A DNA stretch of 18,760 nucleotides. Origin: a virus (lineage: Duplodnaviria; Heunggongvirae; Uroviricota; Caudoviricetes). Shown here piece after piece: positions 2,304 through 18,760 of this stretch (the first letter of the stretch is position 1; each line of letters starts with the position of its first letter). Below the pieces are notes generated by a model, which saw only the letters and a list, made by a program, of their open reading frames with translations, had not been told where the DNA came from and made no database searches. The stretch lies in IMG/VR virus record IMGVR_UViG_2563366883_000018; one strand, given 5' to 3'. A program made the translations under genes and the position numbers.

Positions 2304-2532
2304 TATAATAAACTTACTTTTTTATCATTTTTCCACTTTAACAACATTTTGCTCCACTTTTCCACGACCAAACAACTTGAAATCTGGTTAAAATAACACG
2401 CAACACTATTCTTCTTCCTTGAGTCCGCCCGGAACTCGAAAAACAAACCGAGTTAAAGCCATTTTTCACAAAATCGATTTTGGGTCTCACCAAAATTACG
2501 GGGTTGCATACGCATTCGTTTATTTTCGAACG

Positions 2533-2552
2533 TGTACATACAAATATGTACA
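2533..2552. promoter_or_regulatory. Perfect 8-bp-arm palindrome TGTACATA-CAAA-TATGTACA about 70 bp upstream of pinQ; candidate operator or protein-binding site
   Basis: Read directly from sequence; function not established. Confidence 0.3.
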
Positions 2553-2619
2553 AAAATAATCAAAATTATTTTCTGAGATGCATTATGATATGAACACCAA
2601 TTTCGTATAGAATCTCACT

Positions 2620-3210
2620 ATGTCTCGAATTTTTGCTTACTGTCGGATATCAACGCTGGATCAGACCACCGAAAATCAACGCCGGGAAATCGAAAGTGCA
2701 GGTTTTAAAATCAAACCTCAGCAAATAATCGAAGAACACATTAGCGGCTCAGCAGCAACCAGTGAGCGTCCTGGTTTTAACCGGTTGCTTGCTCGCCTGA
2801 AATGTGGTGATCAATTGATTGTGACAAAACTGGATCGCCTTGGTTGTAATGCAATGGATATCAGGAAAACAGTGGAACAACTGACCGAAACAGGTATCAG
2901 AGTGCATTGCTTAGCATTGGGGGGCATTGACCTGACCAGTCCAACAGGAAAAATGATGATGCAAGTAATTTCAGCAGTCGCTGAATTTGAACGAGACCTT
3001 TTACTTGAACGCACTCATTCCGGGATAGTAAGAGCCCGCGGCGCAGGGAAACGTTTTGGTCGACCACCTGTGTTAAATGAAGAACAGAAACAGGTGGTAT
3101 TCGAACGAATTAAGTCAGGTGTAAGTATAAGTGCCATTGCCCGGGAATTCAAAACCTCGCGGCAAACCATTTTAAGAGCCAAAGCAAAACTTCAGACACC
3201 TGACATATAA
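2620..3210 (+). CDS. pinQ: Serine recombinase (resolvase/invertase family, PinQ/PinR-like), 196 aa
   Basis: ORF track 2620..3210(+); N-terminal YCRISTLDQ motif with catalytic Ser10, C-terminal HTH region; strong recalled similarity to K-12 PinQ/PinR. Confidence 0.93.
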
Positions 3211-3307
3211 AAAATAATCTCGGTGTGAGATGCTTTACGTCTTCCAAGCCCCCTTCCTTGCCGTAAATGGAAAGATACATCTAATTATAGAATTTATATG
3301 TTTTACC

Positions 3308-3883
3308 CTACGGCAGTGCTGGCCATTCAATATCCTGTGCAGTTGACGTATCAACACGGTTCAGCAATACCCGATACTTTTTCCATGCTTCCAGCAACGA
3401 GATTTCTTCCTCCGTTGCAATTTCCAGATCTGCAGCATCCTGAAGCGGCGCAATATGCTCACTGGCTACCTGCATCAGGTTGTTTTTTGTTTCTTCCGCC
3501 TCCCGGATCCGGAACAGTTTTTCTGCTTCCGTATCCTTCACCCAGGCTGTGCCGTTCCACTTCTGAAACTCCCCTTCCGGGGATAACCAGGTGACATTTT
3601 CCGGTAATGGGCCAAGTTCAGAAATAAATAACGCGTCGCCGGAAGCCACGTCATAGACGGTTTTACCCCGATGATCTTCAACGAGATGCCACGATGCCTC
3701 ATCACTGTTGAAAACAGCCACGAAGCCAGCCGGAATATCTGGCGGTGCAATATAGGAACTGTTTGCTGGCAGACCTGTATGAGGCGGAATATATGCGTCA
3801 CCTTCACCAATAAATTCATTAGTTCCTGCCAGCAGATTATAAATTTTTATGGTCCGTGGTTGTTCACTCATTCTGAATGCCAT
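3308..3883 (-). CDS. tfaQ: Tail fibre assembly protein (Tfa family), 191 aa
   Basis: ORF track 3308..3883(-); ATG at 3883-3881 overlaps the stf stop by 1 nt (TAATG), indicating translational coupling; lambda Tfa-like sequence. Confidence 0.9.
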
Positions 3884-10981: not shown

Positions 10982-11252
10982 GATGTTACCGTAGTATGTG
11001 AGTATCCATCGAATAGACACCAAGCAAAAAAGCTCCCGAAGGAGCCTTCATTTTCACTTTTTTAAATCCAACGACAGACGGCTGGCATTTAAGTATTGTG
11101 AAATATTATCAAATGTAATCATCATTGATTTACAAAAGATACATTTTGCCCCGAAAGGATTCATGTCAGAAACATCAAAAGATGATGTTCTATACTGGGA
11201 ACCATGACAACACGGGCATCTAAAGTGAATATGGTTTGTAATATTGTCTACC

Positions 11253-11465
11253 TCAAAGCGCCACTACATGAACAGCGGCAGGACCTTTAGGTCCGTTCTC
11301 AATACCAAATTCAACTTCCTGATTCTCAGTTAATGTTTTGAAATCGTTGCTCTGAATTGCTGAGAAATGGACAAACACATCTTTGCTGCCATCTTTCGGC
11401 GTGATGAAACCAAAACCTTTTTCAGGGTTAAACCATTTCACTAAACCAGTCATTTTGTTAGACAT
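11253..11465 (-). CDS. cspI: CspA-family cold-shock protein, 70 aa
   Basis: ORF track 11253..11465(-); [13 protein letters not shown]...KGFGFI...FVHFSA cold-shock domain with RNP1/RNP2 motifs; followed on the minus strand by a long AT-rich leader (11466 to about 11650). Confidence 0.93.
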
Positions 11466-11826
11466 AATTATTACCTTTTGAAGAAATTAGCCCTTGGGCA
11501 GAATGGTCCGAAAAAAATATCAGAGAGAAAAACCAACAAGGAAATCTCAAGAGGTACAAATAATAAAATTATAACAATGACTGCTTCAGATAAATTTGTA
11601 ACAAACCAGAACACCATTAACGCATGATTAACCACCCATAGCAAGGATTACTTTTGTAAAGAAAAACACAGCAATGAAAGAATAGCTTTATTTATTAATA
11701 AAACGTGTCATTCTGATTAAGACCTTTTATCTTACCCTTAAGATTTCAGGAATTTTGGCTCATGGAAGAGTCCTTTTTATTCAAATTTTACATTCCGCGA
11801 TGTAAATGTTCCGATTTAATATTACC

Positions 11827-13853: not shown

Positions 13854-14135
13854 TGAGATTGTGGTGCTTTTTGTGGGAGTCATCCACTTACGCACTTTGT
13901 TTTGCCATGCCAGCAGTTAGCTTCTGCTGTAAAACTATTCAGGCAGCAAACCTGCACTTCACCACAATGGTTAGCATACTTTTCCTGATTAAGATTTTGC
14001 CAAATATGCTAGCCATTGTTTCATGTATTGGACCTCCTTACTTTTTATTAAAGAGATCCAATATTCACTACTCTGTCCGTATCTCTACTCAGGCATCAGC
14101 CTTCTTCGTTATCGTATACAGACGAGCGATGAATT

Positions 14136-14351
14136 TTAATCAGTAATGATGACATTTGCTGCTGCAGGACCTTTAGCACCACTCTCTATAGAGAAGGTAA
14201 CCTTTTGACCTTCAAATAAGGTTCGATAATTATCATTCTGAATCGCAGAAAAATGCACAAACACATCTTTACTACCATCAACAGGAGAAATAAAGCCGAA
14301 ACCTTTATCAGCGTTAAACCATTTTACTAAACCAGTCATTTTATTTGACAT
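14136..14351 (-). CDS. cspB: CspA-family cold-shock protein, 71 aa
   Basis: ORF track 14136..14351(-); [21 protein letters not shown]... cold-shock domain. Confidence 0.93.
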
Positions 14352-14651
14352 TCTACATTCCTTAACTTGAGCCTTTCGGCATAAATGGTTTGCATAACAG
14401 AAACGACTTCGTACTTAATTGGAGAGACTCAAAGAAGGAATAAGTGAATAACACCTGAAATGAGAACTGCTTTAGTAAACTACTTCGTATATCGTCTGTT
14501 CTTCAAACCGACGCAATCATTAACGCATAGTTGAACATATGAAGCAATGTTTATTTTAGACATCCAGCCATCTTCAACCCCATCAAAAAACTATAGCTTT
14601 CTTCAGGAACGTGTGTATAGTGCGCCAAGTTATCAGTATTAAGGAATTTTT

Positions 14652-14918: not shown

Positions 14919-15008
14919 ATGAATAACCCCGTCTGTCTTGATGACTGGTTGATTGGCTTTAAAAGCTTATGCTGTACTTTGGCCGTAATAGCTCTGCTAA
15001 TAATATAA
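14919..15008 (+). CDS. Candidate small hydrophobic protein, 29 aa ([29 protein letters not shown])
   Basis: ATG at 14919 preceded by GGAGAG at 5-nt spacing; hydrophobic C-terminal half; no homology known to me. Confidence 0.25.
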
Positions 15009-15156
15009 TAAGCAGACTCATTGTGTTTAGGGACATTGTACTGGAAGAAAACATTTTAAACATCAGGCAAATAACCAAGTCACCAGCTAAATAATAAGTT
15101 AACAGACATGAGTCCCGGGATGAGATTCAACATTACCATTGCCCCATTTAAAGCAC

Positions 15157-15192
15157 AAAACCCGCTCATCAGCGGGTTTTCTACTTTTTCTT
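15157..15192. terminator. Bidirectional rho-independent terminator (stem AACCCGCT/AGCGGGTT, loop CATC) between convergent cspF and quuQ; on the minus strand a candidate tR'
   Basis: Plus strand hairpin followed by TTTTCTACTTTTTC; minus strand hairpin followed by TTTTGTGCTTT. Confidence 0.6.
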
Positions 15193-15225
15193 AGCGTCGG
15201 GTATACAAAGCCCATCGTTGAAAAA

Positions 15226-15254
15226 ATTTTATCCATATTTTTTGAAAAATGCAA
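15226..15254 (-). promoter_or_regulatory. Candidate Q-dependent late promoter (pR'-like): -35 TTGCAT, 17-bp spacer, -10 TAAAAT on the minus strand
   Basis: Read from sequence; lies 32-60 nt downstream of the quuQ stop and about 40 nt upstream of the terminator hairpin. Confidence 0.4.
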
Positions 15255-15285
15255 ACATCATGTCGCCATCTTCAGCAAAAATCAT

Positions 15286-16038
15286 TTATCTCGTCACCTT
15301 CCTCAATTGCGCTTCCGCGTATGCTTCTTCCTGCCAGCACTTTGTTACCAGTTTACCAATGACGTCCGCATACCCCTTATACCACTGATAATCGGTCAGG
15401 TCTGGTACCAGCTTCTGGACATGACGTCGTGCCAGCGTGGTCGGTAAACGACTAAACCGGTTTCCATTACAACGCCCACAAATCTTATATACCGGTACGC
15501 CATGAAACCGGGTTCTTTTTTCATCCAGAACAATCCCTTTACCCTTACACCCTCTGCACGCTGTGCTGGCTTCGCCCTTACCATGGCAATGCTGACATAG
15601 TTCCTTCACCCATTCTTCCTTGATTACAGATTCCCCGCGTCTGTAGTGTTTCACCACTTCGCGCAATACATTATAAAATCCCGTACCTGAACAATGCTCA
15701 CAGCGAGCCTTACTTGCCGCAGACCTGGAGTAATCAGCAAAGGCAAAACTCACGAGGTAAGGAATAATCTGTAACCGGATTTCTTCACTCAATTTGTTCA
15801 ATGTCGGGTTATCCAGTGCCATCGCGTAATTTAGCAGGCCTTCAATCGCAAACTGAGGGTCCTGAACACCAACTTTTGCCAGAAATAAGGCCAACCCAAG
15901 TGGTGCTTTCGACTGCACCATCCCCTGCGCTGCCATTACATCCGTAATTGTTAAACAACCGGTGCCTGCCGCTGGAGCGTCATCGCTCAATTTTGGAGAT
16001 TTTGGGGAGTAATATTTTGGTAAGGCTTCAAGGTTCAT
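15286..16038 (-). CDS. quuQ: Late-gene antiterminator Q-like protein, 250 aa
   Basis: ORF track 15286..16068(-); the internal ATG at 16038 is preceded by GGAG and gives 250 aa; several CxxC pairs (CEHC, CQHC, CRGC, CGRC). Confidence 0.88.
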   Translation of the reverse strand: MNLEALPKYYSPKSPKLSDDAPAAGTGCLTITDVMAAQGMVQSKAPLGLALFLAKVGVQDPQFAIEGLLNYAMALDNPTLNKLSEEIRLQIIPYLVSFAFADYSRSAASKARCEHCSGTGFYNVLREVVKHYRRGESVIKEEWVKELCQHCHGKGEASTACRGCKGKGIVLDEKRTRFHGVPVYKICGRCNGNRFSRLPTTLARRHVQKLVPDLTDYQWYKGYADVIGKLVTKCWQEEAYAEAQLRKVTR

Positions 16039-16051
16039 GCTCGTTCTCCAC

Positions 16052-17101
16052 TTACGCCAGTACGCCAATTGCCAGCGCGCGATCGATAAAACGAAATATC
16101 AGCTCCAGTTGGGAGCCATACTTATCTTCAAATGCCACTGTATCCGTATGCAGCTCGTTGTGATGCTTTCTGCACAAAGGCAACACAAAGAGATCATGTG
16201 CTTTTGTTCCCATTCCGCCCTGCCCGTGACCAATCAGATGATGCGGATCGTCGGCTGGCATACCGCAGCAAGCACACGGCTGTGTCTTAACCCAACGTGT
16301 GTATTTCTCCTTAACCCAGCGGCGACGTTTAGGCAGCTTCATGAAAGATTCCGGAGACTCTGGATCAACGGTGATGCTTACCACCGTCTTTTCCTGTGGT
16401 GATTTTTGTTGCTGGTGGGCGTAAGGCAACGGTGCAAGATTTTTTGTGCGTTGTTTCAATATGCTGGTGGCGGTCTGCTCTCCCGGTACGATGTCGCTTT
16501 CGCGGTACACCGAGCAGATTTTTTCCGCTGGTAATCCCAGCGAACGACGCGATACAGCCTCAGGTAGTGCATCCACCACCTGATTGCAGACCGCCCACCA
16601 GGATAATTCAGCCAAAGATAATTCCCGCTCCTGCGTACCGCTTATTGCGTGACGGATGACGTCAATCACCCATGCTGTCAGATTTTGTTGAGCAAGCAGC
16701 TCCAGTGATTCCGATGTCTGGTCACGCAGTTGGTTGTCGCAGTGCCAGCACAACACCATTGCGCCGGTACCATAACGGTGAATGACTGTTTCAGTGTGAT
16801 GGTAATCGCCATTAGGCCACTGGCAGGATGTAACATGACGTAATAGCCAGTCGGACAATGCGCCAACGCCGCCAGCAGCACGAATCACCCGTTCGTTACT
16901 AAAAAACGGCAGCAATGTTTTGTCTTCCGCCAGCGGCTGGCGAACGGCAGGAACGACTCCGGATGGCAGATTACGCATGCTTTTTGGTTCCGGTTCCACC
17001 AGCACTCGAGGATTATGAAATATCTGTATGGATTCACGGCCCGGCTTAAGGACCACCAGCCCAAGCTCAGGCACCAGAACAGGTCTAAGTAATACCCGCA
17101 C
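16052..17101 (-). CDS. ydfU: DUF968-family prophage protein, 349 aa, with C-terminal Cys/His HNH-like motif
   Basis: ORF track 16052..17140(-); the GTG at 17101 gives the 349-aa length I recall for YdfU and sits 1 nt after the upstream ORF's stop; C-terminus CACCG...HHLIGHGQGGMGTKAHDLFVLPLCRKHHNELH. Confidence 0.8.
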   Translation of the reverse strand: MRVLLRPVLVPELGLVVLKPGRESIQIFHNPRVLVEPEPKSMRNLPSGVVPAVRQPLAEDKTLLPFFSNERVIRAAGGVGALSDWLLRHVTSCQWPNGDYHHTETVIHRYGTGAMVLCWHCDNQLRDQTSESLELLAQQNLTAWVIDVIRHAISGTQERELSLAELSWWAVCNQVVDALPEAVSRRSLGLPAEKICSVYRESDIVPGEQTATSILKQRTKNLAPLPYAHQQQKSPQEKTVVSITVDPESPESFMKLPKRRRWVKEKYTRWVKTQPCACCGMPADDPHHLIGHGQGGMGTKAHDLFVLPLCRKHHNELHTDTVAFEDKYGSQLELIFRFIDRALAIGVLA

Positions 17102-17102
17102 G

Positions 17103-17381
17103 TTACCTCCAGATCCGTTGCTGGAAAGTGCGGGACGCACGTGGTGGGCGTTCGGAATAAGGCAGCCTGACAGAGATTATCCAGTGCCGATAGTCGAGAC
17201 TGAGAGCTTTCTTAACCTCGAACCCGCGCCTGCGGTAAGAATGAATCAGCCATTCGGCCTGTTCTGCAGTGCATGGAGGGTGCTGGAACCATTCAGACTT
17301 GAATGCGTGAGAATACCGCCCGTGCGTGCAGGCAAGAACGGGCGAATTATCAGAATTGTAATATTTTGCGTTGCGTGCCAT
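17103..17381 (-). CDS. Hypothetical prophage protein, 92 aa
   Basis: ORF track 17103..17381(-); ATG start with GGAG 8 nt upstream; stop abuts the ydfU start. Confidence 0.6.
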   Translation of the reverse strand: MARNAKYYNSDNSPVLACTHGRYSHAFKSEWFQHPPCTAEQAEWLIHSYRRRGFEVKKALSLDYRHWIISVRLPYSERPPRASRTFQQRIWR

Positions 17382-17447
17382 CGGTTTTCTCCGGTGGCAC
17401 GGTGTTACTCAGCGGGAGTTCAGCCCCGCGCAAGATTGTAGATGAGT

Positions 17448-17699
17448 TTATTCTCCTGAAAAAGCAGAAAAGCCAGCTTTTATTCCGATCTCTTTCAATG
17501 CCTGTAATGAAGTGACAAACTCACCTTCGCGCAAGATAAATCCGTCCGTGACCCGAGCATCCACAAAATTAATTAACGCAGCCCCATTCTTTCGCAAACA
17601 CATAATGCGGTAATGACTAACAAGATTTCCATTTTCAACGCACACAGCATAGAGGCCATCTTCACAAAAAATTTTACGCAGTTCTTCGATGTTCATCAT
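17448..17699 (-). CDS. Hypothetical prophage protein, 83 aa (position and length fit K-12 rem, sequence identity not verified)
   Basis: ORF track 17448..17699(-); begins MMNIEEL... Confidence 0.6.
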   Translation of the reverse strand: MMNIEELRKIFCEDGLYAVCVENGNLVSHYRIMCLRKNGAALINFVDARVTDGFILREGEFVTSLQALKEIGIKAGFSAFSGE

Positions 17700-17814
17700 C
17701 AGAATCCTTCCGGATAATTAGCTCTCCCCTTTAAGGGACCATCCCTCTTATCCCTGCGCGCTACTTAAGTATTTTTGATTCTATTCCGGCACCGTCCAGA
17801 ACTTCAAACGCGTT

Positions 17815-17847
17815 GAAAATAAAAACAAAAACCCGCCGAAGCGGGTT
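17815..17847 (-). terminator. Rho-independent terminator of the relB-relE-hokD operon (stem AACCCGC/GCGGGTT, loop CGAA, then a long T-run on the minus strand)
   Basis: Minus strand reads AACCCGCTTCGGCGGGTTTTTGTTTTTATTTT, about 70 nt downstream of the hokD stop. Confidence 0.65.
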
Positions 17848-17915
17848 AAGTGCGGGTGCGTTGAGGATGCCTGCCACATCAGAGGTGGCGAGGGATTTCT
17901 CCCCCGCCGGGTCTC

Positions 17916-18071
17916 TTACTCCTCAGGTTCGTAAGCTGTGAAGACAGCGACCTCCGTCTGGCCGGTTCGGATTCGTACCTCGCAGAGGTCTTTCCTCGTT
18001 ACCAGTGCCGTCACTATGACGGTTAAACAGATGACGATCAGGGCGATTAACATCGCCTTTTGCTGCTTCAT
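17916..18071 (-). CDS. hokD: Hok-family type I toxin, 51 aa (below the ORF-track threshold)
   Basis: Manual translation of the minus strand: MKQQKAMLIALIVICLTVIVTALVTRKDLCEVRIRTGQTEVAVFTAYEPEE. Confidence 0.9.
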   Translation of the reverse strand: MKQQKAMLIALIVICLTVIVTALVTRKDLCEVRIRTGQTEVAVFTAYEPEE

Positions 18072-18142
18072 AGCCTGCTTCTCCTGTCAACGCAAAGCAG
18101 AAGTGTCACCTTCGGTGCGAAACAGAGATGTCATGCTTTGGT

Positions 18143-18430
18143 TCAGAGAATGCGTTTGACCGCCTCGCTATATACTTCCGAGCGTTCTCTTTTCCCAACA
18201 GAAATCACGAAAACGACAACTTTCTCGTCTATAACCTGGTATACAAGGCGATAGCCTGAAGACCGGAGCTTAATCTTGTAACAATCAGGCATACCACGGA
18301 GCTTGTTTGCTTCAATCCGGGGTGACTCAAGTACTTCAACCAGCTTCTTTTTCAACTGTTCACGTACCGTCGAGCCCAGCTTTCGTCATTCCTTTAGTGC
18401 CCGCTCGTCAAAATCCAGAAAATACGCCAT
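18143..18430 (-). pseudogene. relE: relE mRNA-interferase toxin gene with an in-frame TGA at codon 15
   Basis: Minus strand from ATG 18430: MAYFLDFDERALKE-TGA-RKLGSTVREQLKKKLVEVLESPRIEANKLRGMPDCYKIKLRSSGYRLVYQVIDEKVVVFVISVGKRERSEVYSEAVKRIL; the stop occupies 18388-18386 where recalled K-12 RelE has Trp; the ORF-track 70-aa ORF is only the part after an internal TTG. Confidence 0.85.
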
Positions 18431-18666
18431 CAGAGTTCATCCAGCGTCACACGTACTGGCTTAGGATTACGAAGCCGTTCTTTCACTATCTCCACAAGTT
18501 CAGCATCTTCATCACTCAGGAGTGTCTGTTTGAACGGCAAGCGTTCATTGTCAGCGATATACTCGAGCATGAGACGAAGCGCTTCAGAAGGAGTTACACC
18601 CATTTTTTCAAGCGCGGCGTAAGAACGCGCTTTAAGTTCATCGTCAATACGCAGGTTAATGCTACC
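18430..18666 (-). CDS. relB: RelB antitoxin coding sequence (codons 2-79 plus stop); the native ATG is split by the IS1 end
   Basis: ORF track 18430..18681(-) starts at a TTG inside the IS1 inverted repeat; translation from codon 2 is GSINLRIDDELKARSYAALEKMGVTPSEALRLMLEYIADNERLPFKQTLLSDEDAELVEIVKERLRNPKPVRVTLDEL; the stop overlaps the relE ATG (ATGA). Confidence 0.85.
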   Translation of the reverse strand, partial: GSINLRIDDELKARSYAALEKMGVTPSEALRLMLEYIADNERLPFKQTLLSDEDAELVEIVKERLRNPKPVRVTLDEL

Positions 18667-18667
18667 C

Positions 18668-18760
18668 GGTAATGACTCCAACTTATTGATAGTGTTTTAT
18701 GTTCAGATAATGCCCGATGACTTTGTCATGCAGCTCCACCGATTTTGAGAACGACAGCGA
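18668..18760 (-). mobile_element. insB: IS1 insertion sequence, partial (terminal inverted repeat plus the last 26 codons of insB); continues beyond the window
   Basis: 18668-18760 reads GGTAATGACTCCAACTTATTGATAGTGTTTTATGTTCAGATAATGCCCGATGACTTTGTCATGCAGCTCCACCGATTTTGAGAACGACAGCGA, the canonical IS1 end as I recall it; the minus strand encodes ...SLSFSKSVELHDKVIGHYLNIKHYQ-stop. Confidence 0.9.

Follow-up and report, generated by a model that had tools for sequence, protein, structure and literature searches.

In the DNA analysed here, a GTG-initiated DUF968 gene, ydfU, abuts the stop codon of a 92-aa open reading frame (ORF) and precedes a Q antiterminator gene. This arrangement raises the questions of whether the two genes form a unit and what YdfU, the C-terminus of which resembles an HNH nuclease, would do for the phage. 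The window, that is, the whole 18,760-nt stretch that was analysed, corresponds to Qin, a cryptic prophage of E. coli. Its positions 15900-17800 are 99.9% identical to thousands of genomes, and comparison with MG1655 revealed three substitutions across 15797-18667, with divergence starting only at 18668. The minus strand carries, in this order, rem (17699-17448), the 92-aa ORF (17381-17103), ydfU (17101-16052) and ydfT/quuQ (16038-15286), which is assigned to the Q antiterminators by annotation and by Pfam Antiterm (E 9e-54) and starts 13 nt past the ydfU stop. The names annotated at the Qin locus are ydfT, ydfU and rem; hokD and relBE adjoin the region of ydfU and the 92-aa ORF. No rusA lies between ydfU and Q in this Qin copy, and no RNA families were found by Rfam within 15000-18760. 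The locus is best explained as the promoter-distal end of a delayed-early (ninR-type) operon of the Qin lambdoid prophage.

The ydfU start codon and the stop-start junction

The ydfU CDS (349 aa, His-Me finger) was called in the ORF list and in the PGAP and MG1655 annotations, and matched by Pfam DUF968 and phrog_96. PGAP annotation of E. coli C600 gave exactly two CDSs at this place, ydfU (DUF968 protein) and the hypothetical protein WP_012304870.1, which is the 92-aa ORF of our ORF list, with a 1-nt gap between them. The preliminary description had placed the stop of the 92-aa ORF against the ydfU GTG, and the sequence bears this out: the ORF runs from the ATG at 17381 to the TAA at 17105-17103, and after one base (17102) the GTG follows at 17101-17099. 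An SD-like GGAGG (17110-17106) is located within the last codons of the 92-aa ORF, 4 nt before the GTG, and the whole junction (17099-17110, minus strand) reads GGAGG-TAA-C-GTG. Stop-start junctions of such a kind are the rule throughout these operons. On the other side, a 66-nt spacer (17382-17447, minus strand) lies between rem and the 92-aa ORF and contains a GGAG (17392-17389) 7 nt ahead of the ATG. The junction TGGAGGTAAcGTGCGGGTATT is essentially invariant across 160 IMG/VR loci; the loci with the long form of the small ORF are close relatives of one module, and their counts are not independent events.

The ydfU frame is open upstream to a GTG at 17140, which corresponds to an older 362-aa reading, and a different start would have broken the coupling that the preliminary description proposed. 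The start at GTG 17101 was upheld by two lines of evidence. All eight diverse homologues, down to 27% identity, align at this position and begin with MR(V/A)LL or MKAII. In the segment overlapped by the 362-aa reading, dN/dS was 0.09 in the frame of the small ORF and 2.4 in the ydfU-extension frame (53 distinct alleles). Because the homologues start at this GTG and the overlapping frame evolves as non-coding, the 349-aa start is confirmed against the 362-aa reading, which was rejected; a frameshift fusion of the two ORFs was rejected on the same grounds. With the upstream stop within a few bases of the start and an SD sequence inside the upstream gene, the junction has the geometry of a coupled pair, from which translational coupling of the 92-aa ORF and ydfU is plausible. 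Ribosomes ending the 92-aa ORF would probably re-initiate at the ydfU GTG, as the stop abuts this start.

The C-terminal and N-terminal Cys/His regions of YdfU

The preliminary description also saw an HNH-type motif in the C-terminus of YdfU and suggested HMM searches for DUF968 and HNH. The first of these gave a match of 256.8 bits (PF06147; gathering cut-off 27.8 bits; E 1.4e-76) between residues 160-346 and profile positions 1-171 of 171, and DUF968 matched all 8 diverse homologues as well. The HNH search fell just short, with HNHc_6 scoring 26.3 bits (E 6e-6) on YdfU against a Pfam cut-off of 26.6 bits, and matching 4 of the 8 homologues (best E 9e-7). RecA_dep_nuc, the P1 Ref family, matched YdfU at E 0.004, below its gathering score; the weak HNHc_6 and RecA_dep_nuc matches both cover the HNH core (residues 268-328). 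Among the PHROGs, phrog_96 (“HNH endonuclease”) spans full-length YdfU, and phrog_131 (the YbcO family) also matches it (E 2e-6). When the YdfU C-terminus was compared with an alignment of YbcO by hhalign, E was 2.4e-5 and the probability 75%, the matched columns being H288, the GxGxK loop, D303 and the start of the C-x-x-(C/H)-H helix, with H288 and D303 aligned with the His and Asp of YbcO. No match was obtained in NCBIfam, nor in PDB searches with full-length YdfU, the 8-sequence profile, the N-terminal profile or the C-terminal 95 residues.

Alignment, HMMs, hhalign and AlphaFold2 (AF2) point to a C-terminal HNH, or predicted beta-beta-alpha-metal, domain at residues 256-349 (16055-16336, minus strand), and the motif quoted earlier, QPCACCGMPADDPHHLIGHGQGGMGTKAHDLFVLPLCRKHHNELH, corresponds to residues 274-318. 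C276, H287, H302, D303, P308 and L309 are invariant in the 8-sequence alignment (down to 27% identity); H288 and H318 are each kept in 7 of the 8 homologues, and C279 and C310 in most. The pairs C276-x2-C279 and C310-x2-H313 are present, with Cys at position 313 in several homologues. H287, H288, H302, D303 and H318 are the candidate catalytic residues. The Qin YdfU retains every motif residue; some are missing in the homologues from P1 and Vibrio (HH changed to H..Y, the last His changed to Glu, or the Cys ligands gone). In the AF2 model, built from 61 sequences and of moderate quality (mean pLDDT 68), strands 285-288 and 306-309 and helix 311-319 form a predicted beta-beta-alpha unit at 285-319, in which the loop 292-302 has pLDDT below 50. 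A Foldseek search of this model against PDB found nothing significant, the best hit having E 1.6 and the HNH proteins Cap5 and ScoMcrA appearing at E 3-5. An Orf/NinB-like domain, as proposed for Gram-positive DUF968 proteins, was rejected for YdfU on the basis of a helical middle region in the AF2 model and no NinB match.

Across 71 distinct alleles, dN/dS of ydfU was 0.11 overall, 0.08 in the HNH domain and 0.04 in residues 60-130, and the best-conserved columns of the HNH domain are those expected to be catalytic. Such a value in the HNH domain reveals ongoing selection, and YdfU is therefore not decaying. The HNH-type motif of the DUF968 C-terminus is thus supported by HMMs, by phrog_96 and phrog_131, by hhalign to YbcO and by the predicted beta-beta-alpha unit. 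This relationship is already known and stands in standard annotation, ydfU being a listed “y-ome” gene: an HNH motif was noted in DUF968 proteins (Curtis et al., 2014), and YdfU/DUF968 was placed with YbcO/DUF1364 in group 7 of the His-Me finger superfamily, with a proposed role in recombination (Jablonska et al., 2017; PMC5714182).

The N-terminal half holds another conserved Cys/His region, at residues 60-130 (16712-16924, minus strand), which was recognised from the alignment, the AF2 model and dN/dS and is the most constrained part of YdfU. The 8-sequence alignment showed a cluster of C93, H/C101, C118 and C/H121, with Q94, W119, D122 and N123 invariant. AF2 predicted a hairpin (strands 105-110 and 113-118) followed by a helix (119-125) and gave the region pLDDT 81-93, the highest confidence in the model. 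No relative of residues 1-160 turned up in Pfam or PDB. Judging from this model, the region probably resembles a treble-clef-type zinc finger, and zinc would be bound by it. We also considered the motif as a second HNH and rejected it, as strand 1 does not end in a conserved His and hhalign gave no significant match to the C-terminal HNH, to YbcO or to NinG.

The 92-aa gene and its neighbours

Residues 27-92 of the 92-aa ORF match phrog_1212 over its full length (E 1.7e-35, profile positions 1-66 of 66) and constitute a conserved basic core, with the pattern W-F-x-H-x2-C-T ... Y-x2-R-G ... L-P ... P-R-P-S-R-x2-Q-x3-W; residues 1-26 are a variable extension, which is confined to the YdfU-linked long form of Escherichia. 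Aligned homologues of ~66 aa come from Gifsy-2, mEp237, PY54, phiES15, GF-2, an Erwinia phage and Klebsiella phages, and the phrog_1212-type family is small (60 representatives at 50% identity among 1.84 billion proteins). The pI was 10.2 for the 92-aa protein and 10.6 for the core. In the AF2 model of the small protein, residues 1-23 are disordered and the core adopts a beta-alpha-beta-beta arrangement (pLDDT about 85). Foldseek with this model against PDB and BFVD found no significant neighbour; apart from a protein of N15 that is likely a sequence homologue, the hits were small alpha/beta folds of a generic kind. The extension had a dN/dS of 0.65, as against 0.10 in the core (residues 27-75) and 0.09 in the tail, and the other frames looked non-coding. 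Purifying selection is confined to its own frame, which shows the 92-aa ORF to be a real gene and, judged by these alignments and rates, a separately conserved ninR gene of Enterobacterales phages. The curated MG1655 record has nothing annotated between ydfU and rem; PGAP does call the small gene in other assemblies.

The synteny of the small gene was then compared between loci. Qin-type YdfU was next downstream of the long-form small ORF in all 79 loci, and a His-Me finger nuclease (YdfU, NinG or YbcO) lay directly downstream of the small-gene family in 152 of 153 IMG/VR loci. The genes downstream of the short form were NinG (59 distinct small proteins), YbcO (10), RusA (1) and others (2), and short-form copies 92% identical to each other were followed by NinG in one locus and by YbcO in another. 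The downstream exceptions comprised a Dcm methylase (Erwinia phage 59), an unrelated ORF (PY54) and RusA (one Enterobacter genome). On the upstream side, a 4-5 nt gap joins the short form to a DUF1367 gene (NinB/Orf-like family) in 21 of 22 species-representative genomes, and the long-form loci have a variable neighbour (rem, hok-like genes, methylase or lipoproteins) at a gap that differs in length between relatives but is >60 nt.

Full-length YdfU homologues without the small gene upstream were found in SfV, KpF5, YeP1, Serratia BZS1, EPP-1, Vibrio phage Her and P1 (PdcB), preceded by genes for KilA-N proteins, RusA, replication protein O, a LexA-like protein, a deoxyribosyltransferase or PdcA, none of which is related to the 92-aa ORF; PdcA of P1 was considered as a counterpart and rejected for want of any similarity. 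These carriers are SfV, P1 and phages of Klebsiella, Yersinia, Serratia, Edwardsiella and Vibrio. RusA directly followed YdfU in 59 of 80 Qin-type loci (order YdfU, RusA, Q), and NinG and YbcO were absent from all 80. Other YdfU homologues adjoin RusA and lie just ahead of Q or Lpa, and other arrangements of the small gene are small gene-YbcO-RusA-Q and small gene-NinG-Q. The two-gene unit suggested by the preliminary description therefore holds in part: the junction is invariant and the pairing constant in the Escherichia long form, but a dedicated unit is not supported, as the genes separate outside that group. Because of this separation, the small gene is a fixed ninR element with nuclease genes swapped directly downstream of it, and it is best explained by the synteny as a movable neighbour of YdfU, not as a dedicated YdfU subunit.

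The likely role of YdfU and comparison with known systems

Gene structures, family membership, conservation and synteny are the observations from which we infer nuclease activity, substrate, zinc binding and coupling. On this sequence-level evidence, the reading that we favour, and hold to be fairly probable, is that YdfU would be a structure-specific endonuclease for intermediates of phage recombination or replication, with an N-terminal recognition domain and with the small gene as a movable neighbour. The N-terminal Cys/His domain, a predicted zinc finger, would recognise DNA or branches, and the predicted helical and variable middle part would serve as a linker. In the C-terminal part, H287, D303 and H318 would hold the catalytic metal, and C276, C279, C310 and H313 would hold a structural zinc. 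YdfU would then most likely cut or nick DNA intermediates of phage recombination or replication, filling the YbcO slot ahead of RusA and Q, a slot that NinG/Rap fills in other lambdoid phages. We counted against this reading the fact that this Qin copy lacks an adjacent RusA. Rho reportedly blocks transcription into ydfU strongly in K-12 (PMC9160355), and given this block ydfU may be silent there. The P1 gene pdcB is nonessential.

The synteny bears directly on whether the 92-aa protein and YdfU could instead be a specific two-protein system, in which the small protein would be an inhibitor, immunity factor or specificity subunit kept at a fixed ratio by coupling. The invariant 1-nt junction with its internal SD, the unbroken succession of long-form small ORF and Qin-type YdfU, the family-wide presence of a His-Me finger nuclease next downstream, and the basic nature of the small protein, with a disordered N-terminal extension only in the YdfU-linked form, would all suit such a system. 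However, seven diverse full-length YdfU homologues do without the small gene, PdcA of P1 being unrelated, and the nearly identical short forms before NinG or YbcO argue against a co-evolving interface. The short form has a more constant partner in its upstream DUF1367/NinB-like gene; the methylase, the unrelated ORF and RusA break the downstream pattern, and the IMG/VR counts come from close relatives. We consider a dedicated two-protein system unlikely. To a broader proposal we give the same low credence: that the phrog_1212 small protein is a general component of the NinR module, working with whichever His-Me nuclease follows, and that the YdfU N-terminus is a new branch-recognition zinc finger. 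As such a component, the small protein might load the NinG, YbcO or YdfU nuclease onto branched DNA, or restrain the nuclease.

A toxin-antitoxin or phage-exclusion cargo, with an HNH toxin and a small neutralising protein, like the nearby relBE and hokD, would explain why those genes adjoin the pair and why the DNA upstream of the small ORF is variable and cargo-rich; moreover, Rho-dependent termination upstream of ydfU was described as silencing toxic prophage genes (PMC9160355), and unregulated His-Me nucleases are generally toxic (PMC5714182). Nevertheless, no PADLOC defence model matches either protein, and in phages that are functional and inducible (mEp460, SfV, Gifsy-2 and P1) the two genes have fixed places within ninR and are not on mobile islands. 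YdfU is also exchangeable with the recombination-region genes YbcO and NinG, and ydfU and the small gene occur independently, all of which makes this the least credible of the explanations and a very improbable one. It seems only slightly less improbable that YdfU is not, or never was, a nuclease, the HNH-like module being a structural zinc or DNA-binding domain of a regulator or of a decaying cryptic-prophage remnant. The partial loss of the motif in P1 PdcB and the Vibrio homologues, the annotation of one group 7 member as a transcriptional regulator (PMC5714182), the constant position of the gene just ahead of a late-gene activator and the defectiveness of Qin agree with this idea. It is contradicted by the intact motif of the Qin copy, by the selection on the HNH domain across the sampled alleles and by the coincidence of the most conserved columns with the expected catalytic ones.

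The finding matters little beyond annotation, and the locus is ordinary except for the gene missing from the K-12 reference. This conserved 92-aa gene under purifying selection could be added to the MG1655 record. The contrast between small gene-YbcO/YdfU-RusA-Q and small gene-NinG-Q offers a lead, according to which YdfU/YbcO would be the nuclease partner in RusA-type modules. Of further interest are the small gene left out of the annotation, the constraint on the N-terminal Cys/His domain, and the way in which NinG alternates with YbcO/YdfU plus RusA.

Several known phage proteins can be set beside YdfU. P1 Ref (RecA_dep_nuc, PDB 3plw) and the Orf-HNH proteins of Listeria and Staphylococcus (HNHc_6) are recombination-associated HNH proteins of phages and the source of the weak Pfam matches to YdfU; the AF2 model of YdfU has a helical middle region and contains no alpha/beta domain of the Orf type. 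P1 PdcB is a full-length homologue (26% identity over residues 32-348; phrog_96, E 2e-128), shares the N-terminal CQ...LCWxxDN motif with YdfU and sits just ahead of the late-gene activator Lpa. Unlike in the Qin YdfU, the HNH motif of PdcB is degenerate, and the preceding PdcA (phrog_3345) is unrelated to the 92-aa ORF.

Lambda NinG/Rap (PF05766) is a structure-specific recombination endonuclease. It is the alternative occupant between the small-gene family and Q and was mutually exclusive with YdfU in the 80 loci; RusA usually comes next after YdfU but is usually missing beside NinG. Besides its His-Me finger, NinG has a zinc finger at the N-terminus (PMC5714182). YdfU itself had no Pfam NinG match, and hhalign against a 53-sequence NinG alignment was not significant. 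Membership of YdfU in the NinG/Rap family was therefore rejected, the slot being the same but the NinG profile not being matched.

A further comparison is with YbcO of the DLP12/82 prophage (PF07102, formerly DUF1364; PDB 3g27), which belongs to the same His-Me finger group 7 (PMC5714182). Direct sequence searches did not link the two proteins, and the hhalign comparison revealed the H, GxGxK, D, C-x-x-(C/H)-H, E pattern common to YbcO and the YdfU C-terminus. YbcO consists of the nuclease domain only (96 aa), whereas YdfU has ~255 extra N-terminal residues including the Cys/His domain. Both fill one slot, downstream of the phrog_1212 small gene and ahead of RusA and Q. As judged from synteny and profile comparison, YdfU is the long-form positional equivalent of YbcO, within the same His-Me finger group.

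Annotation and neighborhood of the 92-aa ORF

The 92-aa ORF directly 5′ of ydfU (17103-17381, minus strand) is under purifying selection. It is unannotated in the MG1655 reference NC_000913.3, where the gap between ydfU (b1560) and rem (b1561) is empty, and it was called by PGAP in assemblies other than this reference. According to a published RT-qPCR study (PMC9160355), the Rho-dependent terminator upstream of ydfU, which would fall somewhere within about 17100-17800 on the minus strand, is one of the strongest in K-12.

A weak match to phrog_4916 (E 5e-4) was observed at residues 31-58 of the 92-aa ORF. The family phrog_4916 is the counterpart of the C-terminal 70 residues of NinG (residues 136-203 of Gifsy-2 NinG, E 1e-27), and its match to the 92-aa ORF may have arisen by chance.

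On the 3′ side, rusA lies between ydfU and Q in 59 of the 80 Qin-type relative loci (L287-L366); in the window, as in K-12, Q follows ydfU after 13 nt (16038-16052) without rusA. Where the small gene has its short form of 66 aa (loci L265-L286, L002 and L003), a DUF1367 gene (NinB/Orf-like) nearly always precedes it with a gap of 4-5 nt, so that DUF1367, the small gene and a nuclease gene form a recurrent trio.

Fused proteins were also found in the databases. The 438-aa entry P0122, from one contig, joins the 92-aa ORF and YdfU in frame (...RTFQQRMRVLLRPV...), and several entries of 584-607 aa join YdfU and Q. Both kinds of fusion are probably artefacts of sequencing or gene calling.

Other features of the window

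Comparison of the window with MG1655 revealed total divergence at 18668-18760, beginning just upstream of relB, and only three substitutions elsewhere (15969, 16476, and 18386), so the source either is a non-K-12 strain or carries a rearrangement at 18668-18760. Rfam matches above the gathering score comprised IS009 and two cspA-type thermoregulator leaders (3342-3540, 11226-11610, and 14120-14512, respectively), all on the minus strand, the two leaders being located upstream of cspI-like and cspB-like genes.

YdfU and phage P1 PdcB

Within YdfU, residues 60-130 (16712-16924, minus strand) were found to be under the strongest constraint (dN/dS 0.04). A hairpin followed by a helix is predicted for this segment, in which the cluster C93, H/C101, C118 and C/H121 is conserved and W119, D122 and N123 are invariant. 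Searches of Pfam and the PDB found no relatives of residues 60-130, which may represent a new zinc-finger domain.

In phage P1 (locus L015), pdcB is located at 2405-3448, just 5′ of the late activator gene lpa. PdcB, whose HNH motif is partly degenerate, is homologous to YdfU over its full length, with 26% identity and phrog_96 in common. The 66-aa PdcA, which precedes PdcB, bears no relation to the 92-aa ORF.
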